NCBI GenBank assembly: GCA_964506465.1
Contig: CAZDLM010000028.1
Location: 1 to 32,000 of the forward strand
Reading direction: 5' to 3'
Length of the DNA stretch: 32,000 bases
Source: an uncultured Syntrophaceae bacterium
GTDB taxonomy: Bacteria > Desulfobacterota > Syntrophia > Syntrophales > UBA6109
Of this stretch, positions 9,865 to 28,178 are shown in pieces (the stretch's first letter is position 1; each line of letters starts with the position of its first letter). Made by a program: the position numbers and the translations under genes. The notes under the pieces are model-generated. The model saw only the letters and a list, made by a program, of their open reading frames with translations, did no database searches and had not been told where the DNA came from.

Positions 9865-11400
9865 TTACTTTCCCGGGCACTCGGCCGCCTCCGGAGGCGG
9901 CGCGTTCCCGCGGAATTCGTCCAGGTCGGCAAAGCGGTTCATTCCTTCGAGGCGCCGCAGATACTGCTGATAGCGTGCCTGCCAACCGGCCCTGCGGATC
10001 CGCCGGTCGACGAAAAACTTCATGACGGGTTGGATGACGTAGGTCCAGAAGGAGGTCCACAGGCGGCCCTGCTGCACGGCGAAGGCCGAGGGTTTCCACC
10101 ACCCCAGGACCGTTTGCCGGTAATGCCAGAAGGCATATGCCAACTGATCGGCCTGAAGCCGCCGGGTCTTCACATTGGCCCAGAAGCCGTTGTACCGCTC
10201 AAAGCGGTCGGGATTCGTCACCAGGCCCTCGGCGAGCAGATTTTCCCGAAGCCGGGTCTTGGGATAGGGGGTGAGGATCTGGCAATACGCGGCGTCGATC
10301 TCCAGTTCATTGAGGAATCGGTAGTTCTCCTGGATGGCGGTATCATCGTCGTCGGGCAGCCCGAAGATGAGGCCCCCGATCACCATGATGCCGTGCCGGT
10401 GGCAGCTCAGGACGGCCTGCCGCGCCGCCTGGACCAGATCGCCCTTCTCCATGGCCGCGAGGTTCCGGCTGGAAGCGCTTTCAATCCCCAGAAACACCCC
10501 TCGGAATCCCGCCGCGGCCATCTTGGCCACCATCGCCTCATTGCGGGCCATGGAGATGCAGTCTGCCTGGACGATCAGCCGCAGGTTCCGGTATTTCCGG
10601 GCGATGATGGCGTCGCAGACGGCCGTGACCCACTGGGGGTTCAGCACCATGTTGTCATCGGTGATGAAGATGAGACGCGTCTTCCGGTTGAAGTAGATGT
10701 CGTCCAGGTCGGCGAGAATCCGTTCGATGGGATACGTCCGGTAGGAGCGCCCATACATGTGGTTGATGCTGCAGAAGTTGCAGCTTCGCGTGCAGCCCCG
10801 GGAGGTTTCCATGACCTCGATCCGGGAGTACATGAAGTGGTATCCGCGCGTCAGGCGCCGGCGGTCGCGCACCGGGAGCTTTAGCCGGGACAAATCGCAG
10901 AGTTCCCCCGTTTCGTTGTGGATCCATTCGTTCCCGCGCCTGTAGGAGAGCGACGGAACGGCCTCCAGGCTGTCGGTCCCCGCCAGGGCGTTGACCAGCC
11001 TCCGGAACGTCTCCTCCCCTTCGCCGCGGATGATGAAGTCCATCTCCTGCGCATCCGGGGATGTGGCGATCTCGCGGCTCATCAGGGTGGCATGATAGCC
11101 CCCGACGGCGATCTTCACTCCGGGCAGGAGACGCTTGATGAGCCGCATCACGGCCAGACACGTCGGGAACTGCCAGGTCATGGCCGACAGGCCGACCAGA
11201 TCGGGGCGGATCTTCTTGAGGGTCTTCGTCAGATAGGCGACGACGCCGCGGCGCTTGCGGACCAGATCGATCAGATGGACCTCATGCCCCTCATCGATGT
11301 TGCCGGCGACGCAGGCGATGCCGTGGTTGGGCATGTGGAGCGCCGTCTCATGGATCACGATCGGAATCACATCCGGCATCGAGATCAGGACCACCTTCAT
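9865..11400 (-). CDS. B12-binding-domain radical SAM enzyme (class B type)
   Basis: 511 aa. N-terminal Rossmann-like domain (MKVVLISMPDV..., DLVGLSAMT, KIAVGGYHAT) and CxxxCxxC in SRGCTRSCNFCS, followed by a long C-terminal extension. Confidence 0.85.
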   Translation of the reverse strand: MKVVLISMPDVIPIVIHETALHMPNHGIACVAGNIDEGHEVHLIDLVRKRRGVVAYLTKTLKKIRPDLVGLSAMTWQFPTCLAVMRLIKRLLPGVKIAVGGYHATLMSREIATSPDAQEMDFIIRGEGEETFRRLVNALAGTDSLEAVPSLSYRRGNEWIHNETGELCDLSRLKLPVRDRRRLTRGYHFMYSRIEVMETSRGCTRSCNFCSINHMYGRSYRTYPIERILADLDDIYFNRKTRLIFITDDNMVLNPQWVTAVCDAIIARKYRNLRLIVQADCISMARNEAMVAKMAAAGFRGVFLGIESASSRNLAAMEKGDLVQAARQAVLSCHRHGIMVIGGLIFGLPDDDDTAIQENYRFLNELEIDAAYCQILTPYPKTRLRENLLAEGLVTNPDRFERYNGFWANVKTRRLQADQLAYAFWHYRQTVLGWWKPSAFAVQQGRLWTSFWTYVIQPVMKFFVDRRIRRAGWQARYQQYLRRLEGMNRFADLDEFRGNAPPPEAAECPGK

Positions 11401-12269
11401 AGCGCCGCCTTCCTTTCCATGAGGGCGCGCGCCTCGTCCACCAGCGCGGGCAGAGAGAAGGTTTCACTTCCGTAATCCGGCTCCAGGCTCCCGGCCAGTT
11501 CGACGCTGATGACCGCCTCGTCATGGGCATTGAACAGGAATCGGTCCGGCGGAAAGAGTCTCTGCGTGTTGCGGATGAGGACCACCCGGAGGGGCGATGC
11601 CTGGCAGAGACGGGCGATCTTGAACGCGCCCTTGTCGAACGGGCCGATCCTGCCGTTGCGGGACCGGGTCCCCTCGGGAAAGATGAAAAGATTTCCGCCT
11701 GCGGCAAGGTAGTCCTGCATGGCCTTGATCTGGTCGATCATGCTGGCCGAAAACAGTCCCTCGGCCAGCGAAGGAATGTAACCGGAGCGCCGCAGTATCC
11801 AGCCGAAAACGGGAAGACGGAAATAGTCGTTCTTGACGATCGTCTTCTGCTTTTCAAACAGGGAGACGAAGAGGATGGGATCCAGAAACGACAGGTGGTT
11901 GGCGATGATCACCGAAGAACGCAGGGCCCCGACCTCGTCCGAGACATGCCATTTCACCCGGGGAACCAGGACCCGCAGAAGGGCGAAGAACGACCGGTGA
12001 AGGCGGCAGTTCCATCGTTGAAAGGCCGTCTCTCCCCCGGATGAAAAAAAATGCGTGTACAGATAGAAGGGCGAAAAGAACAGAAGGAATCCCAGAATGT
12101 AGTAGGCCCAGAGGAGCGCCGTCACGATGAAGTCATGGACCCATGCCGCAACAGCACGGGGTCCGGTTGGCGTGCCTTCCGCGCTCCCGGCAGTCCCTTC
12201 CGGGTTGTCTGGCAAAGATCGTCCGCCGTCCACCGGGGAGGTTCGGCCGGTCCGTTCCGGTTGGGTCAT
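11397..12269 (-). CDS. 1-acyl-sn-glycerol-3-phosphate acyltransferase-like (PlsC/LPLAT family), membrane anchored
   Basis: 290 aa from ATG 12269 (MTQPERTG...). Hydrophobic N-terminal segments, H(X)4D in IIANHLSFLDP, and the FPEGTRS motif. TGATG junction with the upstream gene and ATGA with the downstream gene. Confidence 0.85.
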   Translation of the reverse strand: MTQPERTGRTSPVDGGRSLPDNPEGTAGSAEGTPTGPRAVAAWVHDFIVTALLWAYYILGFLLFFSPFYLYTHFFSSGGETAFQRWNCRLHRSFFALLRVLVPRVKWHVSDEVGALRSSVIIANHLSFLDPILFVSLFEKQKTIVKNDYFRLPVFGWILRRSGYIPSLAEGLFSASMIDQIKAMQDYLAAGGNLFIFPEGTRSRNGRIGPFDKGAFKIARLCQASPLRVVLIRNTQRLFPPDRFLFNAHDEAVISVELAGSLEPDYGSETFSLPALVDEARALMERKAAL

Positions 12270-13780
12270 CACGGCCGTCCCCCGCTCGATCCCGGCTTTT
12301 CCCGTCCCTTCGCGAGCTCTTCGTAAATCGGCGCGAAACGGTCTGCCCCGACCACCTGCCGGACGCCATGAAAAGAACCCATCAGGGTTCCGAAGACGCC
12401 CGGCGAAAGGGCGTTCTGGCCCGCAAGCCAGAGACCGGACGGCCCCAGGCGGTGGAGCGTTGCCGCAGCAGGCAACTGGCGGACCGACCGCAGGATCCCG
12501 TAAGGGGAGCCTTCCGGAGTATCCACCCAGTCCCGCAGCGTCAGGGGGCTGTAGGCATCGATCACCTTCGCGTCCGCCAGCGGCCCGAAGACCTCCTCGG
12601 CGTCCTGCAGGAGTTTGCCGGCGAGGGAAGCCTTTTCCTCTTGGTAATCCGCGCCCCGCCGGCCGGTGGTCGTCCGCTCCCACCGGCGCCACTCTTCATA
12701 GGGGCTCCTCGTAATGGCCACCAAGAGGTTTCTCCCCTCCCGGCCTCGCAGCATTTGATAGAAGACGCCCCCGCGGATCGAGCCATCCCGGTTTGTGCGC
12801 AGCCGGAAGATGTTGTGCGGAAGGGCCGGGTGGACGGCGGCGTCCACCGACGCATTCACAGCGAAGAGGCTCTCCGTCTCGCACAGCTCGGCGACGCGCC
12901 GGACCCGGCGCGGAAGGACCAGCCCTTCCGGCAGCATCGCCATCGCCTTCTTGGGATGGATGGCGGCAACCACCCGCGGGGTTCTGCACACCGTTCCCGA
13001 CGCCAGCCGGACCCCCTCGACCGCGCCCCCCGGGGCGAGGATCGCCGTCGCCGGATCGCCGCACAGGAGGGTCCCGCCCAGGGATTCCAGCCTCGCGACA
13101 AAGGCTCCCGCCAAGTCCGCACCGGATCCCTTGAGCCGCCAGGAAGAGAGCAGATAGGATGTCAGGGCCAGGTGATGATAGAGGACGGGACACTGGTCCT
13201 CCGGCATCCCCATCCATCGGGCCGAAACGCCCAGGACGCTCCTGAGCCCCGCCGAACAGTCCATTCCGGCGAGATAATCCCCCAGCGGCGCGAAGAACGC
13301 CGGATCGATGGCCAGAGGGGCCGGCGAAAGAAAAGCGAAGTCCTTCTGGAGACGGGAAAACATGCGGAGGTTTTCGACGATCGCGGCGATGGGGCGCCCG
13401 TCGCCGGGAAACGCCTTCTCCAGCGAGGCGCCGAAGGCATCGAGTCCCACGGGCAGGTCGAATAGGAAGTCATCGAAGAGGTAGCGGTCGATGGCTCCTC
13501 CGCTCCCCATCTCCTCCGCCGCCATCTGGTCCGCAACGCCCAGATAATCGCACATCCTCCGGAGGGGTTCTCCCTCTCCGAAGGAGCCGAAATAGTGGAC
13601 GCCGACGGGGCAGTCCAGGCCGTCGCGCCGGTAGCCGCGCATCAGGCCGCCCGGCAGCGGATTCCGCTCGACGATGACGACCCGGTAATTCAGCAGGGAC
13701 AGGAGGATCCCCACCGACAGCCCGCCGATCCCCGAACCGATGATCGCTGCGTCAAAAGTCCGTTTGTCTTCCATGGTCAT
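12269..13780 (-). CDS. FAD-dependent oxidoreductase, phytoene desaturase (CrtI)-like fold
   Basis: 503 aa with the dinucleotide fold FDAAIIGSGIGGLSVGILLS...VERNPLPGG. Length and layout are typical of the CrtI/amine-oxidase family. The start may be ATG 13774 instead. Confidence 0.8.
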   Translation of the reverse strand: MTMEDKRTFDAAIIGSGIGGLSVGILLSLLNYRVVIVERNPLPGGLMRGYRRDGLDCPVGVHYFGSFGEGEPLRRMCDYLGVADQMAAEEMGSGGAIDRYLFDDFLFDLPVGLDAFGASLEKAFPGDGRPIAAIVENLRMFSRLQKDFAFLSPAPLAIDPAFFAPLGDYLAGMDCSAGLRSVLGVSARWMGMPEDQCPVLYHHLALTSYLLSSWRLKGSGADLAGAFVARLESLGGTLLCGDPATAILAPGGAVEGVRLASGTVCRTPRVVAAIHPKKAMAMLPEGLVLPRRVRRVAELCETESLFAVNASVDAAVHPALPHNIFRLRTNRDGSIRGGVFYQMLRGREGRNLLVAITRSPYEEWRRWERTTTGRRGADYQEEKASLAGKLLQDAEEVFGPLADAKVIDAYSPLTLRDWVDTPEGSPYGILRSVRQLPAAATLHRLGPSGLWLAGQNALSPGVFGTLMGSFHGVRQVVGADRFAPIYEELAKGREKPGSSGGRP

Positions 13781-13837
13781 CCTTGCGGGAGGGTCCGGCC
13801 CGGAGAATCCGGCGGGGAGGATGCCTCCGCGGAGTCG

Positions 13838-14098
13838 TCAAGCCTTCGGGCGGTTCTCCCGGACGAATTGCGCCAGGGCGCGGACGGAGGCAAAGGCCTT
13901 CACGCCCACCTCCCGGGTCTCGATCTTCACCCCGTAGTCCTTCTCGAGCATGAGGACCAGTTCGAGGATATCGATGGAGTCGATTCCGATGCCCCCTCCC
14001 ACAAGAGGTTCGTCTTCTTTGATATCCTCCGGCCGCACGTCCAGAAGCGACAGGGTGGAGATGATCTTGATCTTCAATTCCGCGAGCAGTTCATCCAT
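13838..14098 (-). CDS. Acyl carrier protein (cluster ACP 2)
   Basis: 86 aa from ATG 14098 (MDELLAELK...), with the Ser motif in GIGIDSIDILELV. The track ORF 13838..14515 extends upstream across the ACAD gene. Confidence 0.85.
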   Translation of the reverse strand: MDELLAELKIKIISTLSLLDVRPEDIKEDEPLVGGGIGIDSIDILELVLMLEKDYGVKIETREVGVKAFASVRALAQFVRENRPKA

Positions 14099-14166
14099 CC
14101 TCTTTCTCCCTTTTGAATTTCTCCCGGCAGGGCGGATCCGCAAAAGACGGGCGCTGAAGAAAAGCT

Positions 14167-15309
14167 TCAGAGCCCCAGGCGCCTCGCCACAATCCCACGC
14201 ATGATCTCGTTTGTTCCCCCCAGGATCCGGGTCACCCGTATATCGCGCCACGCCCTGGCGACGGCATATTCCTCGCAGTACCCGTAGCCGCCGTGCAACT
14301 GCAGGCAGCGGTCGGCCACGCGGAAGGCCATCTCGGTCGTCCAGTATTTGGCCATGGAGACCTCCGTGGTCACATCGACGCCCTCGAGATAGTCGACGAT
14401 CAGTTTGTCGACAAAAGTCCGGCCGAGTTTGATTTCCGTCGCCATCTCGACCAGCTCGAACTGGACGTGCTGAAAACGGCTCAGGGACTTGCCGAAGGCG
14501 CTGCGCTGCCGGCAATACTCGCGCGTCAAATCGAAAACCATCTCCGCAGCCGTCACCGCGCTGATCGCCAGGACGAGTCTCTCCGGCTGCAGGTTCCGCA
14601 TGAGCTTCTTGAAGCCCGTTCCCTTCCCGCCCAGGCGGTTGGCCTTCGGAATCCGGCAGTCCTCGAAGAAGAGTTCCGCCGTATCCTGGCTGTGCCAGCC
14701 GATCTTCCTCAGACGTTTCCCCTTGATGAAACCGGGGGTGCCGGCCTCGACCAGATACAGATCGATGGCGTCATGCGCCTTCTCGACCGACGGATCGCGG
14801 GCCGCAACGACAAGGAGGTCTCCGTTGATCCCGTTGCTGATGAAGGTCTTCTGCCCGTTGAGGACGAACGCGTTCCCCTCCTCCACAGCCGTCGTCCTGA
14901 TCGCTGCCAAATCGCTGCCGGCCTGGGGTTCGGACATGGCGACGGCCGTGATGATATCGCCGGCGATGCAGCGGGGAAGGTAGCGCCTCTTCTGTTCCTC
15001 GGTGGCAAAGGCCGTGATGTAAGGGACCACGACGTTGCTGTGCAGCCGGACGGCAAGCCCGCAGAAGTTGGTGCGCGTCATCTCCTCGATCACGATGACC
15101 GTGTAGAGGAAGTCCGCCCCCGTTCCTCCATACGCCTCGGGGACGTCCATGCACAGGAACCCCTGCTCGCCCATCTTTTTCCAGGCGCTGCGCGGGACGA
15201 TCCCGGCCGCCTCCCACTCCTCGATGAAGGGAACGACCTCCCTGGCCAGAAACTTCCGGAGGGCTTGCCGGAAGATGCGGTGTTCTTCAGTGTAGGGGAT
15301 CACGTCCAT
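14167..15309 (-). CDS. Acyl-CoA (or acyl-ACP) dehydrogenase family flavoprotein, IVD/LCAD-like
   Basis: 380 aa with ACAD segments AMSEPQAGSDLAAIRTTA and TFISNG. The C-terminal ILGGTNEIM lacks the MCAD-type YEG glutamate. LQPERLVLA resembles the IVD segment LDLERLVLA that carries the alternative catalytic base (from memory). Confidence 0.85.
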   Translation of the reverse strand: MDVIPYTEEHRIFRQALRKFLAREVVPFIEEWEAAGIVPRSAWKKMGEQGFLCMDVPEAYGGTGADFLYTVIVIEEMTRTNFCGLAVRLHSNVVVPYITAFATEEQKRRYLPRCIAGDIITAVAMSEPQAGSDLAAIRTTAVEEGNAFVLNGQKTFISNGINGDLLVVAARDPSVEKAHDAIDLYLVEAGTPGFIKGKRLRKIGWHSQDTAELFFEDCRIPKANRLGGKGTGFKKLMRNLQPERLVLAISAVTAAEMVFDLTREYCRQRSAFGKSLSRFQHVQFELVEMATEIKLGRTFVDKLIVDYLEGVDVTTEVSMAKYWTTEMAFRVADRCLQLHGGYGYCEEYAVARAWRDIRVTRILGGTNEIMRGIVARRLGL

Positions 15310-15338
15310 GATCGGGTCAGCCCTCCGCCGGCTGCATC

Positions 15339-15770
15339 TCAGGCATCCGCCTCCGCACGAAAGGCCTGGACGCTCATGACGGCCACAATCTCGTCCTCCA
15401 GCAGGACCGTCCCTTCGAAGACCGCGTAGCCCTCCAACGCACAGCTCTTGGTCACCTCGGTGATCAGGGCAGCCGCGATCGGCAGGCGGGCACGGCGAAA
15501 ATCGGCGCTCTTGATCCCCACGAGCCAGCCGGTGGCGCCTCCCCGGCCGCCCTGGATGCGTTTCCAGCCTTCGAGCAGCGCCGCCGTCTGTGCGACCAGC
15601 TCGATCGTCACCAGGGCATCGACCGATCCGTCGCCGTAAAGGGGCCAGTCTTCAGAGGTTGTCGCGGCCGTGCGCGCCCTCTGATCGTCGACGGCCAGGA
15701 CCGTCTCGATCAGCTTCATCCGGCTGCGGTGGGGAATCATCTTCTCGATGTCGAGATCGATCGGTTTCAC
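15339..15770 (-). CDS. Single-hotdog FabA/FabZ-like dehydratase (APE-cluster-like)
   Basis: 143 aa with the IPHRSRMKLIE and TIELVAQTAALLEG segments typical of hotdog dehydratases. GTG start at 15770 assumed; ATG alternative at 15740. Confidence 0.7.
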   Translation of the reverse strand: MKPIDLDIEKMIPHRSRMKLIETVLAVDDQRARTAATTSEDWPLYGDGSVDALVTIELVAQTAALLEGWKRIQGGRGGATGWLVGIKSADFRRARLPIAAALITEVTKSCALEGYAVFEGTVLLEDEIVAVMSVQAFRAEADA

Positions 15771-16878: not shown

Positions 16879-16917
16879 GAGACACCTCCTCTTTTTTTCC
16901 GCCGGTTCCGGCGAGCG

Positions 16918-21566: not shown

Positions 21567-21721
21567 GCCGGAATCAACCCATCCTTCACGATGCTGAAAT
21601 ACCGGTCTCCCGACGACGGGAAAACCGCAAAAACCCTCGCCCTGACCGGTGCCGGAATCTTTCCAAAGGTGGGAAATCGTCACCGGGACGCGTGCAGGGA
21701 AGGATTGTCAGGGTCCTCATA

Positions 21722-22975
21722 TCAGGCAACACGGCGAAACACAAGGCAGGCGTTGCAGCCCCCGAAACCGAAGGCATTCTTCAGGACATGCTCCTGCGTC
21801 AGGCGCCGGGCGCCTTCGGCGACGCAGTCAAGATCGATCGCCGGATCGCGCCGGTAGTTGATCGTGGGCAGCAGAACGCCCCGCCGCATCCCTTCCAGGG
21901 TCAGGATCGATTCCACGGCGCTCGTGGCCCCCATGGCATGTCCCAACTGCGACTTGTTGGCCGAGACGGGAGGGATCCTTTCTCCGAAGATCTCCCGGAG
22001 GGCCTCGGCCTCGACCTGATCGCCCACCTTGGTCGAGGCGGCGTGGGCATTGATTGCATCGATGTCCGCCGGTGCAATGCCGGCGTGGACGATGCTTTGG
22101 GCCATGCAGCGCGTCACCGTAACGGGATTGGGGGCTACCACGTGACAGGCGTCGGCGTTCATCGCCCAGCCGGCCAGCTCAGCGTCGAAGGCAAGACCGT
22201 GGGCCGCGGCAAAGGCCCGTGAAGCGATCACGATGCAGCCCGCCCCCTCGGAAACGACGAATCCACGGCGCCCGAGAGAAAAGGGCCGGCTCGCCACGCC
22301 GGGCGGCAGGGGCGCTTCCCCCTCCTTGGGGCGGTAGGCGCCGTTCATCGTGGCAAAACCCGCCACGATCGGCTCGATCAGGGGAAAGTCCGCGGCGCCG
22401 CAGATGGCCACGTCGGCCATCCCCTGGGCGATGAACATCGCCCCCAGGATCAGCGAACTGCTCCCCGTGGCGCAGGCGGTGACCACCGAGGCAATGGGCC
22501 CGGTCGCCCCGGTCAGGATGGCCACCTTGCCTCCCACCATGTTGATGCAGGAATTGGGATTCATGAAGGGCTGCGGCAGCTTCCCGGCCGCCGTCCAGCT
22601 CCGGTCCGCCGCGATGAGCGCATCCAGCCCGCCGATGGCGGAGCTGAAGGTGACGGCGACCCGCGGGGCCAGGTCCGGCGTGATCTCCAAGCCGGCCTTC
22701 TTCAGCGCCCTGTGGACGACGAGCAGGGCGTGCGGGAAAATCGGGGAGGTCCAGTGGGCCATCTCGCGGGGTTGCAGAAACGGATAGGGGGCGACGTCGA
22801 TGGGGTCGACCTGGCCGGCGATCCGGACGGGAAAGCCTTCTTTCAGGGGGAAGCGGGTCAGGCCCGATACGCCGCTTTCGCCCGCGGCGGCCCGGCCCCA
22901 CTGATCTTCCAGCTCGGCGCCGAGGGGCGAGACGGCATCATATCCCAGGATCACGGGTCGAGTGTCGTTCATCAT
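21722..22975 (-). CDS. Beta-ketoacyl-ACP synthase (KS, intact Cys-His-His)
   Basis: 417 aa with VVTACATGSSSLILG (Cys), NAHAASTKVGD (His) and SQLGHAMGATS (His). Confidence 0.9.
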   Translation of the reverse strand: MMNDTRPVILGYDAVSPLGAELEDQWGRAAAGESGVSGLTRFPLKEGFPVRIAGQVDPIDVAPYPFLQPREMAHWTSPIFPHALLVVHRALKKAGLEITPDLAPRVAVTFSSAIGGLDALIAADRSWTAAGKLPQPFMNPNSCINMVGGKVAILTGATGPIASVVTACATGSSSLILGAMFIAQGMADVAICGAADFPLIEPIVAGFATMNGAYRPKEGEAPLPPGVASRPFSLGRRGFVVSEGAGCIVIASRAFAAAHGLAFDAELAGWAMNADACHVVAPNPVTVTRCMAQSIVHAGIAPADIDAINAHAASTKVGDQVEAEALREIFGERIPPVSANKSQLGHAMGATSAVESILTLEGMRRGVLLPTINYRRDPAIDLDCVAEGARRLTQEHVLKNAFGFGGCNACLVFRRVA

Positions 22976-23006
22976 CTCCTCGCAGGGTCCGGCAGGGGCA
23001 CGCCTC

Positions 23007-24005
23007 TCACCAAGGGATGAACTTGTAGAGCTTGGCGAACATCTCGTACACTTCGATCCAGTTCTGGAGGTCCTTCGTGGAGCGCAGGTGGTCCCTCTTG
23101 TTGACCATGACCCAGCTCATGTGGGCGGCACCGTCCTTACAAGTCCGGCAGTCCCGTGTCGCCGAAGTGCAGCAGCGGTGCATCGTCTCGAGGTCCGCCG
23201 CCCAGCGGATAAAGCGGATGAGGCGCTTCGGACGGGGATTGCGGTTGTCGAGGGGCTCCGTCACGGAGGGGCATTCCTCCCACCCGAAAGACCGCCCCAG
23301 CATCCGTCCGGTGGTGATGACTTCATGGTAGTACCGGCAGGAAACCACCGTCCGCGGGTAGCGATCGAGCATGGCGTCCATCTCGGCGCGGACATCGGCG
23401 AGCTGCGAGGGGCTCCAGGAGAACCCGTCGACGCCTTCATCATTGGAGAGCAGTTGCATGTGGACCTTCAGGCCCACGGCGTCGATCCTGCCGATCACCC
23501 GCTCCAGCCGCCCCAACTGCCGGGGGGTGATGGTGTACAGATAGTAGGTGAAGGGGTCGCCTTCATAATTGCGGCTGGACACGGCAAAGGTGTCCCTCCC
23601 CCGCAGGAGCTTTTCGTCCTCTTCGTCCCCCCACAGGGAGATCCCCACCATCATGTCGGGAAATCTATCGCGCGGCACCTTGATCAGCCCGTTGGTGGCA
23701 CAGTAGGTGGAAAGGCGCCGGTAGAAGGCCTCGACGCGGTCGAAATGGAGGGTCGGCTCGCCCCCGATGAGAATGGCCAGATTGACCCCCCGGGCCTGTT
23801 CCTTTTCCACAAAAGCGTTCCAGCGGGCGGCGTCCATTTCCTCCCGCGCCGCCTTGTGCTCATCGGACGAGAAGAAGAAGCACCCCTTGCAGCGGAGGTT
23901 GCAGCAGTTCGTCACGTCGTAGATGGAGCTGCGCATGTTCAGGCGCGAAATCGCCTTGTAACGCTCGTACCAAGCGGGATCCAGGAGTGAACTGACGGTC
24001 TGCAT
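23007..24005 (-). CDS. Radical SAM enzyme with C-terminal Cys cluster (paralogue B)
   Basis: 332 aa from ATG 24005 (SD AGAGAGGAA; alternative ATG 24029). CxxxCxxC in YDVTNCCNLRCKGCFFF and C-terminal CCTSATRDCRTC. Confidence 0.8.
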   Translation of the reverse strand: MQTVSSLLDPAWYERYKAISRLNMRSSIYDVTNCCNLRCKGCFFFSSDEHKAAREEMDAARWNAFVEKEQARGVNLAILIGGEPTLHFDRVEAFYRRLSTYCATNGLIKVPRDRFPDMMVGISLWGDEEDEKLLRGRDTFAVSSRNYEGDPFTYYLYTITPRQLGRLERVIGRIDAVGLKVHMQLLSNDEGVDGFSWSPSQLADVRAEMDAMLDRYPRTVVSCRYYHEVITTGRMLGRSFGWEECPSVTEPLDNRNPRPKRLIRFIRWAADLETMHRCCTSATRDCRTCKDGAAHMSWVMVNKRDHLRSTKDLQNWIEVYEMFAKLYKFIPW

Positions 24006-24007
24006 CG

Positions 24008-25168
24008 TTACGGATTCCTCTCTTTGCATCCCGGCGGAGCCACCATCTCTGCGCAGAGATTCTCCCCCTTGTCATATCCCATGACCCAGACGGCCAGATA
24101 GGTATCGACATAGTCCAGCCAGGACTTGAAGGAGGGCGGATCCGCCACGTGGCGATACAGCCGGGCGGTCACCACGGCGCTTCCCGCCGCGTAATGCCGG
24201 CAGTCGGCGCAATCGGTGTCCGGCACGCAGCAGGCCGCTTCCCGGTCCCAGGTGAGGTCCGTCCTGAACTGGCGGAAGGAGCGTCCCAGACCGATCGCCG
24301 TAGAGGCGTTTCTCCGGGGATAGGAACAGTCGTAGAGGTCGTGCAGGCCCTTCTCCTGCGTATGGGCGACGACGTTGTAGGGAGAAAAGAGGACGTGCCG
24401 GGGATAGCGGGACATCATCTCCAGCATGACCTCCCGTGTCCGGACCAGGGAGGCCGCGTCGTGGCGCAGGCCCCCTGCGTAGCCCACGGGCGCAGAGAAG
24501 ACATTGAAGGTGACGCGGCAGTCCGCCGCGGCCAGGAGGCCCATGACTTCCGCCGCCTCATCGATGTTTTCCCGCGTAAAGGTATAGACGAAGACGGCCC
24601 GCGGATCGCCGCGGTAGTTGTCGACCTGCCGGCGAAGCAACTCCCGGGCCTTGCGCACGCGCCGGCTGGTTTCGTCGTTTCCCCAGACGGAGATGTGAAT
24701 CCGGTAACCGACCGCCGGATCGATGCGGCGAAACCCGTTCGTCGCGATGCAGCCCAGCGGCATCTCCGCGAAGCAGACATCGAGAAGATCGGGAACGAGC
24801 GAGGGTTCAGCCCCCGCCAGGACGACATACGTGATGCCGCGGCTGCGTTCCCGCCGCAATAGCTCGCGCCAGGCCTGAGGATCGCCGTTTTCCCGCGCAA
24901 ATTGTTTGTCGCCCTCGTAATAATAACAGCCGTCGCAACGGAGGTTGCAGCGGTTCGTCATGTCATAGGTGGACTCTCTCAGGAAGAAGTACTGCCGAAC
25001 CCGCTCCCAGCGGGCTTTGACGGCCGGCTCCGACAACAGCTCGGAAAACTTCCACCGCCGCGACGGCGAATCTTCCGGCACGGGCCCGCGCCTCAAGGCG
25101 GCCTCGTCGTACCCTGCCGTTCGCTCTCCGGTTTCCTGATTCAGCATCGCTTCGGCCTTCTGCGTCAT
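24008..25168 (-). CDS. Radical SAM enzyme with C-terminal Cys cluster (paralogue A)
   Basis: 386 aa. CxxxCxxC in YDMTNRCNLRCDGCYYY and C-terminal CCVPDTDCADC. Confidence 0.85.
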   Translation of the reverse strand: MTQKAEAMLNQETGERTAGYDEAALRRGPVPEDSPSRRWKFSELLSEPAVKARWERVRQYFFLRESTYDMTNRCNLRCDGCYYYEGDKQFARENGDPQAWRELLRRERSRGITYVVLAGAEPSLVPDLLDVCFAEMPLGCIATNGFRRIDPAVGYRIHISVWGNDETSRRVRKARELLRRQVDNYRGDPRAVFVYTFTRENIDEAAEVMGLLAAADCRVTFNVFSAPVGYAGGLRHDAASLVRTREVMLEMMSRYPRHVLFSPYNVVAHTQEKGLHDLYDCSYPRRNASTAIGLGRSFRQFRTDLTWDREAACCVPDTDCADCRHYAAGSAVVTARLYRHVADPPSFKSWLDYVDTYLAVWVMGYDKGENLCAEMVAPPGCKERNP

Positions 25169-25223: not shown

Positions 25224-25505
25224 TCACGGTTTCCTGCCGGAAGCCGCCTGTTTGGAACACAGATACTTGGCGATCAGCCGGACGGTCCTCAGGGTCGGAT
25301 AGTCGTCCTCATCGATTGCGACGCCGTATTCATCCTGAAGAACCAGGGCGACCGTTGCCAGATCCATACTGTCCACGCCGAGTTCGTCCACCAGATCCAT
25401 ATCGGGATCGAAGGTCTCCGGCGTGATGTCCTGCAGTTTCAACTCCCCGATGACGATCTCGGCGATCCGGAGGATCTGTTCGCGGTCTTCATTGCACTCC
25501 GGCAT
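25224..25505 (-). CDS. Acyl carrier protein (cluster ACP 1)
   Basis: 93 aa with the Ser motif in ELGVDSMDLATVAL. GGAGG SD 7 nt upstream of the ATG. Confidence 0.85.
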   Translation of the reverse strand: MPECNEDREQILRIAEIVIGELKLQDITPETFDPDMDLVDELGVDSMDLATVALVLQDEYGVAIDEDDYPTLRTVRLIAKYLCSKQAASGRKP

Positions 25506-25561: not shown

Positions 25562-25972
25562 CTAAAAACACTGCTCTTTGTCAAGCGATTTGTGCCGCGG
25601 ACTGACGACCGGTTCGGCGGTAAAAGCCCCCGTACAGGCCGGTTCGCCGGCTATTGCGACGCTGAAGAGATAGGTCCATCCGTCCCGCCCCTCCCGCCTG
25701 GATATCTTCAGCGTCAGTTCCTCATCCGGCCTGACCGGAAGGCGAAAACGGACCCTCCCGAGACCGGTAATCCTCATCGACCTTCCCTCCCCGCGTTCCG
25801 CCGCAAGGATCGCCTCTTCCACCAGCGCCAGGATGGCGATTCCCGGAAGCAGCGGGGCGCCGGGGAAATGGCCGTCGTACCACGCCGAATCCGCTGAAAC
25901 GCTTGCCGAAGCCGCTATGCGGTCCGCCGTACCCGAACGGCGCGACAACGCCTGATGGAACGTCTTCTTCAT
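25562..25972 (-). CDS. FabZ-like (3R)-hydroxyacyl-ACP dehydratase (single hotdog)
   Basis: 136 aa. YDGHFPGAPLLPGIAILALVEE matches the FabZ His/Glu active-site segment (HFPxxPxxPG). Confidence 0.8.
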   Translation of the reverse strand: MKKTFHQALSRRSGTADRIAASASVSADSAWYDGHFPGAPLLPGIAILALVEEAILAAERGEGRSMRITGLGRVRFRLPVRPDEELTLKISRREGRDGWTYLFSVAIAGEPACTGAFTAEPVVSPRHKSLDKEQCF

Positions 25973-26832
25973 TTGTCCTCCGGACCTTTCCTGATTTCGG
26001 GAACAGCGCCGGACCGCGGAAGGGTTGCCGGTTCCATCACCGGCCTGCCGGTCAACTGCGACAGCGGCACGACCTCATACCCCTTCGACTTCAGCCCCAG
26101 GACGATCTGCTCCATCTCCTCCATCCAGTCTGCGATCCCGCCGTCGCCGGACGGCGTGACGTCGTGGAGAAGGACGACGGCCCCGGGGCGGACCCTCGAA
26201 AGGATGCCTTTGGCCAAGCCCCGGATGCGGCGGTTCCCGAAATCGCCGGCCCGGCAGCTGAAGGTGATGCAGTCCATGTCCAGCGTCCTGAGCACCCCCC
26301 GCAGTCTCGGATTGGTGATGCCCACGGGCGGCCGGAAAGCGCGGGGCAGGATGCCGAAACCGGACAGCAGTTCCTGGGCGCGGGTGATCTCATCGCAGAG
26401 TCTCGCGCGGGAACGCAGCATCAACAGAGGGTCATGATGGTAGGAGTGATTGCCGATGGCGTGCCCCCGCGACAGGATCTCCCGGATCAACGCCGGATGC
26501 CGTTTCGCCTCGACCCCCACCACAAAGAAAGTCGCCGGCAGCCGATGCCGATCCAGGAGGTCGAGCAGACCGGGCGTGACTTCCGGATCGGGGCCGTCGT
26601 CGAACGTCAGGGACACCGCCCGGCGGTCTCCCGCTCCGCGGCTGATCACCGGCAGGAAGAAACCCGCCCGGGGCAGAAAGGGGGCGGCCAGGCAGGAGAG
26701 AACAAACAGGCCGAGGGGGACGGCGGCCATTTCCGCACGCACGAACATCAGGCCCCCGGAGAGGAGCATCGATGCAGCGCCCGCGATATGGGCCGGCGAC
26801 GGATTCCTTCCAGCGGTCGACGCCTTGTTCAT
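25969..26832 (-). CDS. NodB-homology (polysaccharide deacetylase family) protein, membrane anchored
   Basis: 287 aa from ATG 26832 (ATGA overlap with the upstream stop; alternative ATG 26850). Two N-terminal hydrophobic helices. NodB motifs LTFDDGPD and GNHSYHH. Confidence 0.8.
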   Translation of the reverse strand: MNKASTAGRNPSPAHIAGAASMLLSGGLMFVRAEMAAVPLGLFVLSCLAAPFLPRAGFFLPVISRGAGDRRAVSLTFDDGPDPEVTPGLLDLLDRHRLPATFFVVGVEAKRHPALIREILSRGHAIGNHSYHHDPLLMLRSRARLCDEITRAQELLSGFGILPRAFRPPVGITNPRLRGVLRTLDMDCITFSCRAGDFGNRRIRGLAKGILSRVRPGAVVLLHDVTPSGDGGIADWMEEMEQIVLGLKSKGYEVVPLSQLTGRPVMEPATLPRSGAVPEIRKGPEDK

Positions 26833-28178
26833 CTCAGCAACAGCTCCCACAGCGGACCGGAATGACCGCGGGCGTACATCCGGGCCACGGCGCGTTCCGT
26901 CTGAGCGCTGCCGTCCCCATAAATCCAGTTCAGGCGGCCCCGGGCTTGCCGCTTCACGCGCTCCCTGATCTCATCCTTCGCAATTCCCTTGGAGCGATAA
27001 AAGATCGGGGTCAGAAGATCCTGATCCGGTGCGATCTGTCCCTCCTCCAGCGAGAGTTGATAAAGCGGGGTCTGGGGGAAGATCCGTACGCCACAGAAGA
27101 GGAAGAACACCGCCTTTCCCAGCGCCTCCATGCCGGCCAGCGTCTCTTCCAGGGTCTGTGCGTCCTCTCCGGGCCCGCCCAGCAGAAAGTAGTGGGCGAT
27201 GTGGATCCCTGCCCCCCGGGCGCTCGCGTGGGCGGCGAAGACGTCCCCCGCTTGAAATGGTTTCTGGTAGCGCCTCAACTGCGCGTTGCACAGAGATTCC
27301 GTTCCGAATTCGGCGTGCGTCATTCCGGCGTCGGCCAGGGCGCTGTAATAACCCTCGGCCGGACGCCGCGGGGCCAGAAAAGCCCCCCAGGGAATGCCGA
27401 GCCGTTCGCGCCGGAAGGCCTCGGCGACGGCAAGGCTGTGGTCCTCGTCGGCGTTGAAGACCGAGTCCGTGATGAAAAGAAACCGGGCGCCCAGTTCCTC
27501 CAGTTCCCGCGCCTGCCGGGCGACCTCTTCCGGGGGGAAGAACCGGAATTTGCGCCCCTCGATCAGGGGGAAGGAGCAATAAAAACAGCGGAACGGACAA
27601 CCCCGCTTCGTCTGAAGGTTCATGATCCCTCCGCGATCGAGGTAGAAGCGAAGCCCGGCTTCGCCGGGCGCCGTCCGCCGCGCCACTTTTCCGGTCCAGG
27701 GTACGGGGCACCCGACGGGTCCGCCGCGCGTTACGATCCCGGGCAGGACGGCGGGGTCCGTGCGTTCTTCGAGGGCGGCGAGCAGCAGCGACATGGCCTC
27801 CCCCTCCCCGACCACGCCGAAATCGGCATCCAGCCGGGACATGAACTCGCGGGGAAAGATGGAAAAGCCGCTGCCGCCGAGAACGATGGGGGCCTGCGTG
27901 CGCGCCCTGATGAACCGTGCAAGCGCCTCATAACCCGGAATGAAGCTCTTCGTATCGAGGGTATCTTCGTTGTCGATATTCCGGATGGAGATTCCGATGA
28001 CGTCCGGACGATCGACTCTCAGGGAGTCTTCCAGACGATCCTGAGCCCCGGCAACGTTCATGTCCAGGATTCGCACCTCATGACGGGGCGTCAGGGCCTG
28101 CATGACATAATCGAGCCCGAGCGGATAAACCGGGTGCGGGGTCGTGACCGTGTTGGCCGAAATGAGCAGCACCTTCAT
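26829..28178 (-). CDS. B12-binding-domain radical SAM enzyme (lipid-cluster type)
   Basis: 449 aa. N-terminal domain MKVLLISANTVTTPHPVYPLGLDYV, VIGISIRN, VLGGSGFS. CxxxCxxC in TKRGCPFRCFYCS. Confidence 0.85.
   Translation of the reverse strand: MKVLLISANTVTTPHPVYPLGLDYVMQALTPRHEVRILDMNVAGAQDRLEDSLRVDRPDVIGISIRNIDNEDTLDTKSFIPGYEALARFIRARTQAPIVLGGSGFSIFPREFMSRLDADFGVVGEGEAMSLLLAALEERTDPAVLPGIVTRGGPVGCPVPWTGKVARRTAPGEAGLRFYLDRGGIMNLQTKRGCPFRCFYCSFPLIEGRKFRFFPPEEVARQARELEELGARFLFITDSVFNADEDHSLAVAEAFRRERLGIPWGAFLAPRRPAEGYYSALADAGMTHAEFGTESLCNAQLRRYQKPFQAGDVFAAHASARGAGIHIAHYFLLGGPGEDAQTLEETLAGMEALGKAVFFLFCGVRIFPQTPLYQLSLEEGQIAPDQDLLTPIFYRSKGIAKDEIRERVKRQARGRLNWIYGDGSAQTERAVARMYARGHSGPLWELLLR

Follow-up and report, generated by a model that had tools for sequence, protein, structure and literature searches.

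Ladderane-type lipid clusters form a class known since 2009, the earliest descriptions coming from Kuenenia stuttgartiensis and Desulfotalea psychrophila. They encode cobalamin-domain radical SAM proteins, a type of enzyme in which the residue under cobalt has been proposed as the determinant of chemistry; the roles of this residue and of a glutamate in TsrM are taken from PMC9204698. TsrM methylates sp2 carbons, as BzaD is predicted to do. A tryptophan under cobalt, present in TokK, is typical of radical sp3-carbon methylation on pantetheine-tethered substrates, and the crystal structures of TokK and CysS hold pantetheinylated substrates. The array described here belongs to this class as a new member, the Kuenenia genes being compared by description. 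It lies in the window, the whole 32,000-nucleotide stretch of DNA that was analysed; related loci are given as L numbers.

Layout of the lipid-synthesis array

The array, which comes from a Syntrophales-type bacterium, comprises 24 genes over ~23 kb, all on the minus strand and running from 28571 to 5776 (Table 1). Short gaps and overlapping stop and start codons make a single operon plausible; simple promoter and terminator scans gave no matches above chance level. The divergent intergenic region of ~357 nt, between the minus-strand membrane gene and the plus-strand lipoprotein gene, is the probable promoter region. It has no Rfam match and thus no cobalamin riboswitch.

Three ACPs and five FabF-like ketosynthases are encoded, four of the latter with an intact triad. 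The fifth, KS5, resembles a chain-length factor; it has Ala, Ala and Glu in place of the Cys-His-His triad, and its start overlaps the KS4 stop. The fabF score of KS1 falls under the equivalog cut-off, and the PlsY-type protein, at 93.8 bits, misses the cut-off of TIGR00023 (137). Neither a ketoreductase nor an enoyl reductase is present in the array. The original prediction did not include rSAM-D and rSAM-E, the PlsY and PlsC acyltransferases or the hidden 4HBT thioesterase. In the syntenic locus L001, a counterpart of the first membrane protein (84% identity) lies immediately upstream of rSAM-A, and the LpxL-like gene is preceded by genes for an MMPL-methyltransferase fusion, a glycosyltransferase, DegV/Dak2, 4HBT and an aromatic ammonia-lyase.

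Table 1. Features of the array and its upstream flank, by position in the window
Feature	Coordinates	Strand	Remarks
LpxL-like (lipid A type) acyltransferase	30947..31864	-	Separate upstream unit; Pfam Lip_A_acyltrans 41.8 bits
AMP-dependent ligase	29545..30987	+	Pfam AMP-binding 74.7 bits; position kept in L001
Lipoprotein, unknown family	28928..29533	+	Divergent from array; signal peptide, lipobox LTSC; no Pfam match
Divergent intergenic region	28572..28927		Putative array promoter region
Small membrane protein	28209..28571	-	Array gene 1; 120 aa, hydrophobic; no family match
rSAM-A, cobalamin-domain radical SAM	26829..28178	-	449 aa; TIGR04072 rSAM_ladder_B12
NodB-type polysaccharide-deacetylase-like hydrolase	25969..26850	-	Membrane-anchored; Pfam Polysacc_deac_1 105.6 bits
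FabZ/ApeI-like 3-hydroxyacyl-ACP dehydratase	25562..25972	-	Pfam FabA 35.6, ApeI-like 33.3 bits; HFPG motif
ACP1, acyl carrier protein	25224..25505	-	ACP-family matches; DSM serine motif
rSAM-D, radical SAM without B12 domain	24008..25168	-	Pfam Radical_SAM 32.8 bits; CNLRCDGC
rSAM-E, rSAM-D paralogue	23007..24029	-	Pfam Radical_SAM 32.0 bits; CNLRCKGC
KS1, FabF-like ketosynthase	21722..22975	-	Predicted active; fabF model 323 bits; Cys-His-His triad
KS2, FabF-like ketosynthase	20295..21566	-	Predicted active; fabF model 384 bits; triad; start refined
4HBT-type thioesterase	19807..20298	-	98% identity to L001 gene annotated PF13279/PF03061
PKS-dehydratase-like double hot-dog protein	18977..19840	-	Pfam PS-DH 24.1 bits
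PlsY-type glycerol-3-phosphate acyltransferase	18397..18972	-	Pfam G3P_acyltransf 120.9 bits
rSAM-B, cobalamin-domain radical SAM	16918..18345	-	475 aa; unnamed Syntrophales family; Pfam B12-binding, Radical_SAM
MipA-family outer-membrane protein	16036..16878	-	Pfam MipA 140.7 bits
ApeP-like dehydratase	15339..15770	-	Pfam ApeP-like 33.1 bits
Acyl-CoA/acyl-ACP dehydrogenase-family flavoprotein	14167..15309	-	Three Acyl-CoA_dh Pfam domains, all found
ACP2, acyl carrier protein	13838..14098	-	NF006617 73.6 bits (cut-off 70)
PDH, phytoene-desaturase-like FAD amine oxidoreductase	12269..13780	-	Pfam NAD_binding_8, Amino_oxidase; weak CrtD/CrtI matches
PlsC-type (1-acylglycerol-3-phosphate) acyltransferase	11397..12269	-	Pfam Acyltransferase 72.7 bits
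rSAM-C, cobalamin-domain radical SAM	9865..11400	-	511 aa; unnamed family; Pfam B12-binding, Radical_SAM
ACP3, acyl carrier protein	9519..9788	-	Weak ACP-family matches; DSV serine motif
KS3, ketosynthase	8250..9488	-	Predicted active; NF006587 394.9 bits (cut-off 470 missed); triad
KS4, ketosynthase	6986..8245	-	Predicted active; NF005589 418.7 bits (cut-off 387); triad
KS5, chain-length-factor-like ketosynthase homologue	5776..6993	-	Last array gene; no catalytic triad

Three subfamilies of cobalamin radical SAM proteins

The original prediction of three cobalamin-domain radical SAM genes was borne out with exact coordinates, all on the minus strand, together with its CxxxCxxC motifs, RGCPFRCFYC in rSAM-A, RGCMFQCSYC in rSAM-B and RGCTRSCNFC in rSAM-C. 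All three have the class-B architecture, with Pfam B12-binding and Radical_SAM domains above the gathering thresholds of 32.1 and 29.5 bits, respectively: 57.2 (aa 9-129) and 68.1 bits (aa 191-347) in rSAM-A, 73.3 (aa 21-139) and 83.4 bits (aa 204-366) in rSAM-B, and 77.5 (aa 14-135) and 63.2 bits (aa 197-363) in rSAM-C. As had been judged by eye, they are not recent duplicates; pairwise identities of 25%, 25% and 26% mark them as old paralogues, and they represent three different subfamilies. The ladderane-cluster model that had been named for rSAM-A, TIGR04072 (NCBIfam), does claim this protein at 390.9 bits (cut-off 360), aligning over model positions 1-442 of 443; the next-best curated family is BzaD at 157.7 bits. 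Among curated family models, rSAM-B and rSAM-C reach no cut-off, their top matches being HpnJ (173 bits vs 577.6) and BchE (152 bits vs 481), respectively. All three proteins stay under the cut-offs of BchE, HpnJ, HpnR, BzaD, TsrM and every other known-function family, so neither a missing cobalamin fold nor placement in known unrelated clades, which would have spoken against the prediction, was observed. In the literature, no member of the TIGR04072, rSAM-B or rSAM-C families has been characterised biochemically (PMC13459092, PMC12931638).

The suggested AlphaFold comparison agreed, as the models of rSAM-A and rSAM-C align along their full length with cobalamin radical SAM enzymes of solved structure. 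The AF2 model of rSAM-A (pLDDT 89.8) matches TsrM (6wtf) with a TM-score of 0.88 and E 1e-27, and profile comparison with TsrM gave E 2e-43; the rSAM-C model has a pLDDT of 85.1. The residue under cobalt differs among the three, being Arg in rSAM-A, Trp in rSAM-C and Ser in rSAM-B. C194/C198/C201 and G62-x-S64-x-R66 are invariant in rSAM-A, the latter aligning with G65-x-T67-x-R69 of TsrM, and Arg66 is kept in 40/40 sequences. Position 240, corresponding to Glu273 of TsrM, is occupied by A, V or T in all 40 sequences and by Glu in none. Thus, rSAM-A is devoid of the glutamate that keeps SAM from binding the TsrM cluster, and radical chemistry stays possible. The invariant G70-L-S72-A-M74-T-W76 of rSAM-C aligns with A70-x-S72-x-Y74-x-W76 of TokK, Trp76 being found in 38/38 sequences and aligned to TokK Trp76. 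The corresponding G76-x-S78-x-T80-x-S82 of rSAM-B is invariant as well.

Conserved string and separate conservation of rSAM-B

rSAM-A and rSAM-C, along with rSAM-D and rSAM-E, are conserved pathway members that recur in one string. It runs from rSAM-A through the deacetylase-like hydrolase, a dehydratase, an ACP, rSAM-D, rSAM-E and two ketosynthases to the 4HBT thioesterase, followed by an ACP, a ketosynthase, the PlsC-like acyltransferase, rSAM-C, the PKS-type dehydratase and PlsY. The A...PlsC-C-PSDH-PlsY order is kept in L097 and L100-L102, and L087 is a compact cluster (PDH-A-PDA-DH-ACP-KS-PlsC-C). rSAM-C is again joined with rSAM-A in a second arrangement (L113, L116, L120 and L125). PlsC directly adjoins rSAM-C in 54 of 76 related loci; in the window, PDH, PlsC and rSAM-C are linked through overlaps of 1 nt between the PDH stop and the PlsC start and 4 nt between the PlsC stop and the rSAM-C start. 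Among the 13 fully flanked rSAM-C loci (at least 9 kb on either side), PlsC, KS3 and ACP3 occur in 11, rSAM-A or rSAM-D in 8 and rSAM-B in none. ACP3 is kept beside KS3, which shows 70-79% identity across rSAM-C loci. In L001, L003, L087, L097 and L107, the deacetylase-like gene comes after rSAM-A, and in L100-L102 it stands ahead of the DH-ACP1-rSAM-D/E string; Kuenenia kuste3351 is also described as deacetylase-like (PMC2649909). The pair of rSAM-D, with its Cys-rich C-terminus, and rSAM-E (27% identity) is kept in L001, L003, L086, L097 and L100-102. In L086 and L087, the PKS-dehydratase-like homologue is fused with a phosphopantetheinyl transferase domain.

rSAM-B is highly conserved on its own, and its presence in the cluster is restricted to the lineage of the window and a small number of others. 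In a survey of 80 loci, each from a different species represented by one genome, rSAM-A lay within 10 kb of rSAM-B in 3/43 loci and rSAM-C in 1/51. Orthologues of 65-81% identity are mostly found outside ladderane-like clusters, and those of 75-81% in most Smithella/Syntrophaceae genomes and Syntrophus gentianae lie outside any such cluster; identity across Smithella and Syntrophus is 77-81%. On the Smithellaceae chromosome OY820932.1, rSAM-A and rSAM-B are 700 kb apart. Moreover, the conservation of rSAM-B exceeds that of every cluster protein, suggesting a constraint of its own. A MipA gene lies immediately downstream in 8/80 loci and ~2.2 kb upstream in a ninth. The role of rSAM-B, with its Ser under cobalt, in the cluster pathway is uncertain.

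These data make unlikely a single pathway in which rSAM-A, rSAM-B and rSAM-C work one after another on the same ACP- or lipid-bound chain and each contributes an alkyl group or C-C bond. The three do share one co-directional array with short gaps, and rSAM-B directly follows PlsY in the window, L001, L004, L069, L071 and L077, in lineages with rSAM-B down to 69%; in L088, a B-like gene (65%) and rSAM-C are ~6 kb apart with a transposase gene between them. However, the cluster-free orthologues, the 700-kb separation, the absence from all 13 fully flanked rSAM-C loci and the higher conservation stand against such a succession. The originally suggested common pathway therefore holds for rSAM-A and rSAM-C, which are found together again in clusters of different layout, but not for rSAM-B, whose orthologues are mostly elsewhere.

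Proposed product and alternative chemistries

On balance, we consider it somewhat probable that the array is a ladderane-type lipid cluster in which a special acyl chain is modified by radical SAM enzymes, with a glycerolipid product and with rSAM-A and rSAM-C as methyl (alkyl) transferases. The dedicated ACPs and ketosynthases would make the chain, and the radical SAM enzymes would modify it while it is tethered to phosphopantetheine or once it is part of the glycerolipid. PlsY-/PlsC-type enzymes would attach the chain to glycerol-3-phosphate, yielding as end product a membrane glycerolipid that carries an unusual chain. For the chemistry on the chain we infer radical alkylation or C-C coupling, and the best candidate is C-methylation while the chain is bound to ACP or lipid; the nearest characterised enzymes and the residue under cobalt suggest cobalamin-dependent C-methyl (alkyl) transfer by rSAM-A and rSAM-C. 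Identities of just 16-25% to these enzymes and the missing reductases weigh against this reading. Additionally, no new fatty acid arose when the Kuenenia homologues were expressed in E. coli, the proteins being insoluble or undetected (PMC4790861), and some cobalamin radical SAM enzymes acting on lipids or large substrates are not methylases, GrsA/B being ring-forming and BchE, HpnJ and OxsB performing other chemistry.

Somewhat less likely than the three-step succession is that the radical SAM enzymes close rings, as proposed for ladderane cyclobutanes and as with GrsA/B, or couple two chains, as with Tes and Mss. The family of rSAM-A is named for ladderane clusters, rSAM-D/E show weak N-terminal matches to the Tes model, reviews place the 'ladderane' enzyme under cobalamin radical SAMs of 'other or unknown transformations' with ring formation proposed, and GrsA/B provide a precedent as cobalamin radical SAM ring synthases on archaeal lipid tails. 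However, ladderanes are known in the literature from anammox Planctomycetota only, D. psychrophila made none despite its syntenic cluster, and the closest characterised relatives of rSAM-A are methylases. The original analogy with the tetraether synthase Tes found no homology support, as its model is matched by rSAM-D/E only (22-25 bits vs a cut-off of 450), over the cluster-binding motif region alone.

Improbable, too, and slightly more so, is the anaerobic synthesis of polyunsaturated fatty acids or hydrocarbons (Rattray et al. 2009), with double bonds set or moved by PDH, the acyl dehydrogenase, dehydratases and radical SAM enzymes. Such a route would fit the presence of PDH, three or four dehydratases and the acyl-CoA-dehydrogenase-family protein and the lack of an enoyl reductase, polyunsaturated hydrocarbons were detected in D. 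psychrophila, and desaturation of archaeal lipids by radical SAM enzymes is reported in a 2025 preprint. However, cobalamin is needed for desaturation in no known case, the link between the D. psychrophila hydrocarbons and the cluster is correlative only, and Kuenenia desaturase-like genes in E. coli gave no polyunsaturated product. Least probable of all is an anaerobe's aryl polyene/flexirubin pathway with rSAM-A methylating an aromatic head group: the aromatic sp2-carbon methylation by TsrM, BzaD, CloN6 and CouN6, the ApeI- and ApeP-like dehydratases, KS/chain-length-factor pair, APE-type ACP, LpxL-like acyltransferase and AMP-ligase in the window, the upstream genes of L001 and the added LolA and ketoreductase of L086 and L088 favour it, but compact rSAM-A/rSAM-C clusters (L087, L003) are devoid of lyase, ligase and transporter, aryl-starter genes are absent within reach of the string in L097/L100-102, and the PlsY/PlsC partners speak for ordinary assembly of glycerolipids.

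The favoured C-methylation is consistent with the comparison to known systems: rSAM-A resembles TsrM and BzaD, shares with TsrM the Arg under cobalt and differs from TsrM in its absent Glu, and rSAM-C is like TokK in its Trp under cobalt.

The gene array and its radical SAM genes

The window holds an array of 24 minus-strand genes, which are separated by small gaps or joined by overlapping stop and start codons. The array and its surroundings are listed in the table together with features of homologous loci from other genomes and metagenomes (labelled L). The original prediction placed three cobalamin-domain radical SAM proteins (rSAM-A, rSAM-B and rSAM-C) in one fatty-acid-like operon, and all three open reading frames are present in the array with the cysteine motifs quoted for them. 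The window encodes, however, five radical SAM proteins in total, not three. The additional two, rSAM-D and rSAM-E, are paralogues with 27% identity and both lack a B12 domain. Also encoded are PlsY- and PlsC-type acyltransferases, which load acyl chains on glycerol-3-phosphate.

Features of the window and of related loci, with array genes numbered in the order of transcription
No.	Feature	Coordinates	Strand	Remarks
	Whole array	28571 to 5776	-	24 genes
1	Small membrane protein		-	
2	rSAM-A	26829-28178	-	449 aa; RGCPFRCFYC; Pfam B12-binding 57.2, Radical_SAM 68.1 bits
3	NodB-type deacetylase-like protein		-	
4	ApeI/FabZ-like dehydratase		-	
5	ACP1 (acyl carrier protein)		-	
6	rSAM-D	24008-25168	-	
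7	rSAM-E	23007-24029	-	
8	KS1 (FabF-like ketosynthase)		-	
9	KS2		-	
10	4HBT-type thioesterase	19807-20298	-	163 aa; inside longer listed ORF 19807-20589
11	PKS-type double hot-dog dehydratase	18977-19840	-	287 aa
12	PlsY		-	
13	rSAM-B	16918-18345	-	475 aa; RGCMFQCSYC; Pfam B12-binding 73.3, Radical_SAM 83.4 bits
14	MipA		-	
15	ApeP-like dehydratase		-	
16	Acyl-CoA-dehydrogenase-family protein		-	
17	ACP2		-	
18	PDH (phytoene-desaturase-like flavoprotein)	12269-13780	-	
19	PlsC-type acyltransferase		-	
20	rSAM-C	9865-11400	-	511 aa; RGCTRSCNFC; Pfam B12-binding 77.5, Radical_SAM 63.2 bits
	rSAM-C C-terminal extension	9865-10150	-	About 95 aa
21	ACP3		-	
22	KS3		-	
23	KS4		-	
24	KS5	5776-6993	-	Ala, Ala, Glu at the Cys, His, His positions
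	Dehydratase of No. 4, compared with anammox FabZ	25562-25972		
	Divergent intergenic region	28572-28927		357 nt; upstream end of array
	Lipoprotein	28928-29533	+	201 aa; lipobox LTSC
	AMP-ligase		+	Downstream of the lipoprotein gene
	LpxL-like acyltransferase			Convergent
	YHS-domain protein	4808-5269	-	Downstream of array
	GntR/FCD regulator	3455-4114	-	Downstream of array
	Aldehyde:ferredoxin-oxidoreductase-family protein	1158-2990	-	Downstream of array
	Dehydratase with ACPS domain, L086	11548-13083		After rSAM-C
	Dehydratase with ACPS domain, L087	11522-13105		After rSAM-C
	Fourth B12-domain protein, L086	16489-17769	-	After rSAM-C
	Fourth B12-domain protein, L088	8309-9571	-	After rSAM-C

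Overlaps of 1 nt and 4 nt join PDH, PlsC and rSAM-C. The Cys-His-His triad is kept in KS1, KS2, KS3 and KS4, and the start of KS5 overlaps the KS4 stop. Judged from its residues, KS5 resembles a chain-length factor, and KS4/KS5 would be comparable to the pairs of KS and chain-length factor in type II PKS or aryl polyene systems. The 4HBT-type thioesterase was recognised solely by synteny; its gene is 98% identical to that of L001 and, like its counterparts in most related loci, has KS2 on one side and the PKS-type dehydratase on the other. Elsewhere the counterpart of this dehydratase follows rSAM-C as a protein of 511–527 aa with a phosphopantetheinyl-transferase (ACPS) domain, recalling the PPTase that adjoins the B12 radical SAM kuste2803 in Kuenenia. 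Scans for promoter and terminator consensus sequences over 5000-24999 gave no more matches than shuffled sequence and thus give no help in setting operon limits. Rfam at gathering thresholds gave nothing over the whole window, neither a cobalamin riboswitch nor any other known RNA. The lipoprotein encoded beyond the divergent region has a signal peptide and matches no Pfam family, and no gene was called at its place in L001, the closest syntenic locus. The three genes downstream of the array are unrelated to it and are not kept beside the cluster in related loci.

Families and predicted active sites of the cobalamin radical SAM proteins

A B12-binding domain followed by a Radical_SAM domain was found in each of the three proteins above the Pfam gathering thresholds (32.1 bits for PF02310, the N-terminal cobalamin-binding Rossmann-type domain; the radical SAM core is PF04055). 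The three cysteines of the [4Fe-4S]-cluster motif CxxxCxxC do not vary in any of the three family alignments. Pairwise identity of only 25–26% upholds the earlier view that the proteins are not recent duplicates; recent tandem duplication is rejected, and they are thus considered ancient paralogues. The model rSAM_ladder_B12, which the original prediction had named with rSAM-A as its best candidate, is real (TIGR04072, an NCBIfam whole-protein HMM) and fits that protein with 390.9 bits against a cut-off of 360 (E 6e-117, model positions 1–442 of 443). rSAM-B (101.3 bits) and rSAM-C (101.4 bits) fall below it. The rSAM-A orthologue also lies amid ACP and ketosynthase genes, the context attached to TIGR04072, in the window and in L001, L003, L087, L097 and L107. 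At NCBI, rSAM-A orthologues already bear the name 'lipid biosynthesis B12-binding/radical SAM protein', and those of rSAM-B and rSAM-C are named only generically or, wrongly and by automatic annotation, 'anaerobic Mg-protoporphyrin cyclase'.

None of the three reaches the equivalog cut-offs of BchE, HpnJ, HpnR, BzaD, PhpK or MgmA/QCMT. The next-best curated model for rSAM-A is BzaD (157.7 bits, cut-off 450), and the top curated matches of rSAM-B and rSAM-C are HpnJ (173.1 bits, cut-off 577.6) and BchE (152 bits, cut-off 481), respectively. Identity with BchE, as in the automatic JGI names of the three proteins, is therefore rejected. Scores of 75–127 bits against the HpnR cut-off of 650 (rSAM-C, 127.4) exclude HpnR membership. 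The analogy drawn earlier with the tetraether synthase Tes (GDGT-MAS) finds no support in homology: rSAM-A, -B and -C give no match to NF045702 (cut-off 450 bits), which is matched solely by rSAM-D (25.4 bits) and rSAM-E (22.6 bits) over about 65 N-terminal residues. The top sequence matches to the radical SAM cores include AprD4 (6fd2), which has the same domain as cobalamin radical SAM enzymes, yet is described as a cobalamin-independent diol dehydratase.

AlphaFold models built from the family alignments are confident for rSAM-A (pLDDT 89.8) and rSAM-C (pLDDT 85.1). Both superpose on TsrM, OxsB, TokK, CysS and MgmA, so that the N-terminal domains model as the cobalamin-binding type, in line with the original prediction; for rSAM-B this domain is assigned by sequence alone. 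For rSAM-A the best superposition, covering the whole chain, is with TsrM (TM-score 0.86–0.88, E about 1e-27), followed by MgmA, AprD4, OxsB, CysS and TokK, and its family profile matches TsrM with E 2e-43. The rSAM-C model aligns with the same cobalamin radical SAM structures at TM-scores of 0.55–0.67, with no clear favourite.

[quoted passage not shown] These positions were read from HMM alignments and column counts over 40 rSAM-A, 38 rSAM-C and 15 rSAM-B sequences. In rSAM-A, G62-x-S64-x-R66 aligns with TsrM 65–69 (G-x-T-x-R69), with Arg in 40/40 sequences. The column of TsrM Glu273 holds Ala, Val or Thr in all 40 and never Glu, the D-S-E motif of TsrM reading D238-S239-V240 in rSAM-A, and rSAM-A is below the TsrM model TIGR04428 (108.5 bits, cut-off 500). 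Since the TsrM glutamate is missing, the rSAM-A cluster should bind SAM, which would make radical chemistry possible. In rSAM-C, G70-L-S72-A-M74-T-W76 aligns with TokK 70–76 (A-x-S-x-Y-x-W76), with Trp in 38/38 sequences; at 19% identity and with no curated model passed, this match counts as resemblance only. The corresponding stretch of rSAM-B is G76-F-S78-A-T80-T-S82, with Ser in 15/15. The three distinct surroundings under the cobalt thus argue for three distinct reactions. Additionally, rSAM-C has a conserved, Trp-rich, basic helical C-terminal extension (invariant W434, W435, W448, W452 and W473; helices at 417–496 in the model) that is unmatched among the solved enzymes and may sit at the membrane interface.

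A conserved string and a facultative neighbour

Comparison covered 80 species-representative genome loci at rSAM-B orthologues and 80 metagenome loci at rSAM-C orthologues, with individual contexts added and every window protein mapped onto the loci. All close homologues come from metagenome-assembled genomes (MAGs) named Syntrophales, Smithella, Syntrophus, Syntrophaceae or 'Deltaproteobacteria'. ACP3, KS3 and a PlsC-like gene precede rSAM-C nearly always: PlsC directly adjoins it in 54 of the 76 loci with enough flank, and KS3 lies no more than 3.5 kb away in 40/57. Among the 13 rSAM-C loci flanked on each side by 9 kb or more, PlsC, KS3 and ACP3 accompany rSAM-C in 11 and rSAM-A or rSAM-D occurs within 10 kb in 8, and rSAM-B occurs in none.

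The long arrangement met most often (L097, L100-L102) forms one string of rSAM-A, deacetylase-like protein, dehydratase, ACP1, rSAM-D, rSAM-E, KS1, KS2, 4HBT, ACP3, KS3, PlsC, rSAM-C, PKS-type dehydratase and PlsY, the rSAM-A end being inside the fetched flank only in L097. A compact version of nine genes (L087) comprises PDH, rSAM-A, deacetylase-like protein, dehydratase, ACP, KS, PlsC, rSAM-C and a dehydratase-PPTase. A third arrangement (L113, L116, L120, L125) again has rSAM-C and rSAM-A together, in another order. This linkage, kept through rearrangement, is good evidence that rSAM-A, -C, -D and -E work in one pathway. Directly after rSAM-C, on the opposite strand, 23/83 loci (L086, L088 and 21 more) encode a fourth B12-domain protein that is divergent and absent from the window; it has 420–426 aa, 23–24% identity to rSAM-C and a weak or absent Radical_SAM match.

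The distribution of rSAM-B is different. Its orthologues are 77–81% identical across Smithella, Syntrophus and Syntrophaceae, conserved beyond any other cluster protein. Where the upstream DNA was long enough (43 loci), rSAM-A lies within 10 kb of it in only 3, and rSAM-C is in reach in only 1/51, namely L004, the sole full syntenic match. On the Smithellaceae chromosome OY820932.1 rSAM-A and rSAM-B are 700 kb apart, and in Syntrophus gentianae rSAM-B has no lipid genes nearby. It follows PlsY in the lineage of the window and in a small number of others (L001, L004, L069, L071, L077). Owing to this sparse linkage, rSAM-B is a facultative neighbour outside the conserved core. The proposal of three enzymes in one lipid pathway therefore holds for rSAM-A and rSAM-C by conserved linkage, but not for rSAM-B, which is distributed independently and only sometimes linked. 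An LpxL-like acyltransferase is encoded 1–10 kb upstream of the rSAM-B orthologue in 36/80 loci, and L084 has an MMPL-methyltransferase fusion and AsmA upstream as well. One orthologue (78% identical) is on a 3.3-kb contig binned as 'uncultured Methanobacterium sp.' (L065, CAZDTW010000146.1), probably misbinned DNA of a syntrophic community.

Proposed pathway and relation to known systems

The system in the window is of the ladderane-type, a named but biochemically unsolved kind. To our knowledge, no enzyme from ladderane-type clusters has been characterised except a FabZ and an ACP, and we know of no genetic system for anammox bacteria. Such a fatty-acid cluster was described for Kuenenia stuttgartiensis and is syntenic in Desulfotalea psychrophila, which makes polyunsaturated hydrocarbons but not ladderanes (PMC2649909). 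Kuenenia has three: kuste3603-3608 (ACP, FabZ, two FabF, PDH, radical SAM), kuste2802-2805 (PPTase, B12 radical SAM, FabF, FabB-like) and kuste3335-3352 (including radical SAMs 3342 and 3343, a ligase and a deacetylase-like protein), and Kuenenia genes expressed in E. coli yielded no product (PMC4790861). Ladderane-type clusters of unassigned function have been reported in Desulfobacterota and other non-anammox phyla (PMC9902471), and reviews of 2022 and 2026 still call the ladderane enzyme uncharacterised. A literature search on the family name or accession brought up only Rattray 2009, Javidpour 2016 and two reviews. No cultured carrier of both rSAM-A and rSAM-C was found, the cluster members of ten homologues all having MAG-derived names.

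In the pathway that we propose with moderate confidence, dedicated ACPs and ketosynthases would assemble a special acyl chain; it would be altered by the radical SAM enzymes, on phosphopantetheine or already on the glycerolipid, and placed on glycerol-3-phosphate by PlsY-/PlsC-type enzymes to give a membrane glycerolipid. Cobalamin-dependent C-methylation is the most likely chemistry for rSAM-A and rSAM-C, and each is only tentatively assigned as a methylase, with less confidence than the overall pathway since non-methylating cobalamin radical SAM enzymes exist (GrsA/B, BchE, HpnJ, OxsB). The nearest to rSAM-A after TIGR04072 are BzaD and TsrM; TsrM methylates an sp2 carbon, as is predicted for BzaD (PMC12931638). 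rSAM-C shares its Trp with the radical sp3 methylase TokK. The crystal structures of TokK and CysS contain pantetheinylated substrates, and an ACP offers the same handle.

A bolder and rather doubtful reading is that rSAM-A and rSAM-C are the first cobalamin radical SAM enzymes acting on fatty-acyl (non-isoprenoid) membrane lipids, adding methyl branches or other C-C bonds, without oxygen, to a chain tethered to an ACP or bound in a glycerolipid, with the TokK-like, PlsC-coupled rSAM-C as an acyl-chain sp3 C-methylase. If so, ladderane-type clusters would provide anaerobes with an oxygen-free way to make phospholipids that are mid-chain-branched or otherwise alkylated, and the anammox ladderane pathway would be a derivative of it. 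Radical SAM lipid chemistry would then reach beyond isoprenoids and could account for the branched lipids that serve as biomarkers of anaerobes. Sulfate reducers and anammox bacteria, which we take to be the same groups that share the ladderane-type cluster, typically contain mid-chain-methylated acids, for example 10-methylhexadecanoic acid.

The chemistry of these clusters has been in question since 2006–2009. Two cobalamin radical SAM families stand here in a compact string, kept in many non-anammox anaerobes, with ordinary glycerolipid acyltransferases at its end. This string predicts a phospholipid product and gives a minimal gene set for expression of 9 (L087) or 15 genes (L097/L100-102), with residue-level hypotheses for rSAM-A and rSAM-C (Arg versus Trp under the cobalt, an open iron site). 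The coupling of PlsC to rSAM-C, the minimal conserved string ending in acyltransferases, the 2+1 split of the three enzymes and their three distinct residues under the cobalt all appear to be new. These results render the old question more testable and do not answer it.

Among known systems, aryl polyene (APE) clusters share with the window ApeI-like and ApeP-like dehydratases, a KS and chain-length-factor pair, an APE-type ACP and an LpxL-like acyltransferase, and a ligase is present. The APE genes for ketoreductase, LolA and MMPL are absent from the window and present only in related loci; L001 has an aromatic ammonia-lyase, a glycosyltransferase and an MMPL-methyltransferase upstream. We know of no APE cluster with radical SAM enzymes, PlsY or PlsC.

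TsrM, the tryptophan C2-methyltransferase (PDB 6wte/6wtf), has the same overall fold as rSAM-A and a homologous cobalamin domain, but TsrM and BzaD are only 21–22% identical to it, its context is lipid synthesis rather than thiopeptide or cofactor synthesis, and the iron-ligating Glu is replaced by Ala, Val or Thr. rSAM-C matches the A/G-x-S-x-Y/M-x-W motif of TokK/ThnK-type and CysS C-methylases (PDB 7kdx, 9n1b) residue by residue, including the Trp nearest to the cobalt, and their substrates are pantetheine-tethered, as an ACP-bound chain would be; it is nevertheless only 16–20% identical (TM-score 0.55–0.62), shorter, and has its own C-terminal extension. The hopanoid methylases HpnP and HpnR, the GDGT ring synthases GrsA/B and the GMGT methylase Gmm are cobalamin radical SAM enzymes as well; they modify unactivated carbons in membrane lipids and provide a general precedent for the proposed role, although their known substrates are all isoprenoid.

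A direct link to anammox enzymes was sought through solved structures; the window dehydratase matches anammox FabZ only weakly (E 5.6e-5 to 8.5e-4) and ordinary FabZ better (E 8e-10). The host does not belong to the anammox bacteria, and no ladderanes are expected from it. The closest likeness is to the Kuenenia and Desulfotalea clusters (Rattray 2009, PMC2649909; Javidpour 2016, PMC4790861; Dietl 2023, PMC10139942), whose family model rSAM-A passes; like Desulfotalea, the window's host is a deltaproteobacterial-type anaerobe. Shared with the three Kuenenia clusters are a B12 radical SAM, a non-B12 radical SAM pair, divergent FabF paralogues, dedicated ACPs, FabZ-like dehydratases, a PDH-like flavoprotein, a deacetylase-like protein and an acyl-CoA-type ligase. 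Unlike Kuenenia, the window has all of these in one array joined to PlsY, PlsC, MipA and aryl-polyene-like genes, with a third cobalamin radical SAM (rSAM-B) inserted. Judged by gene content, the window looks like a fusion of the three Kuenenia clusters.
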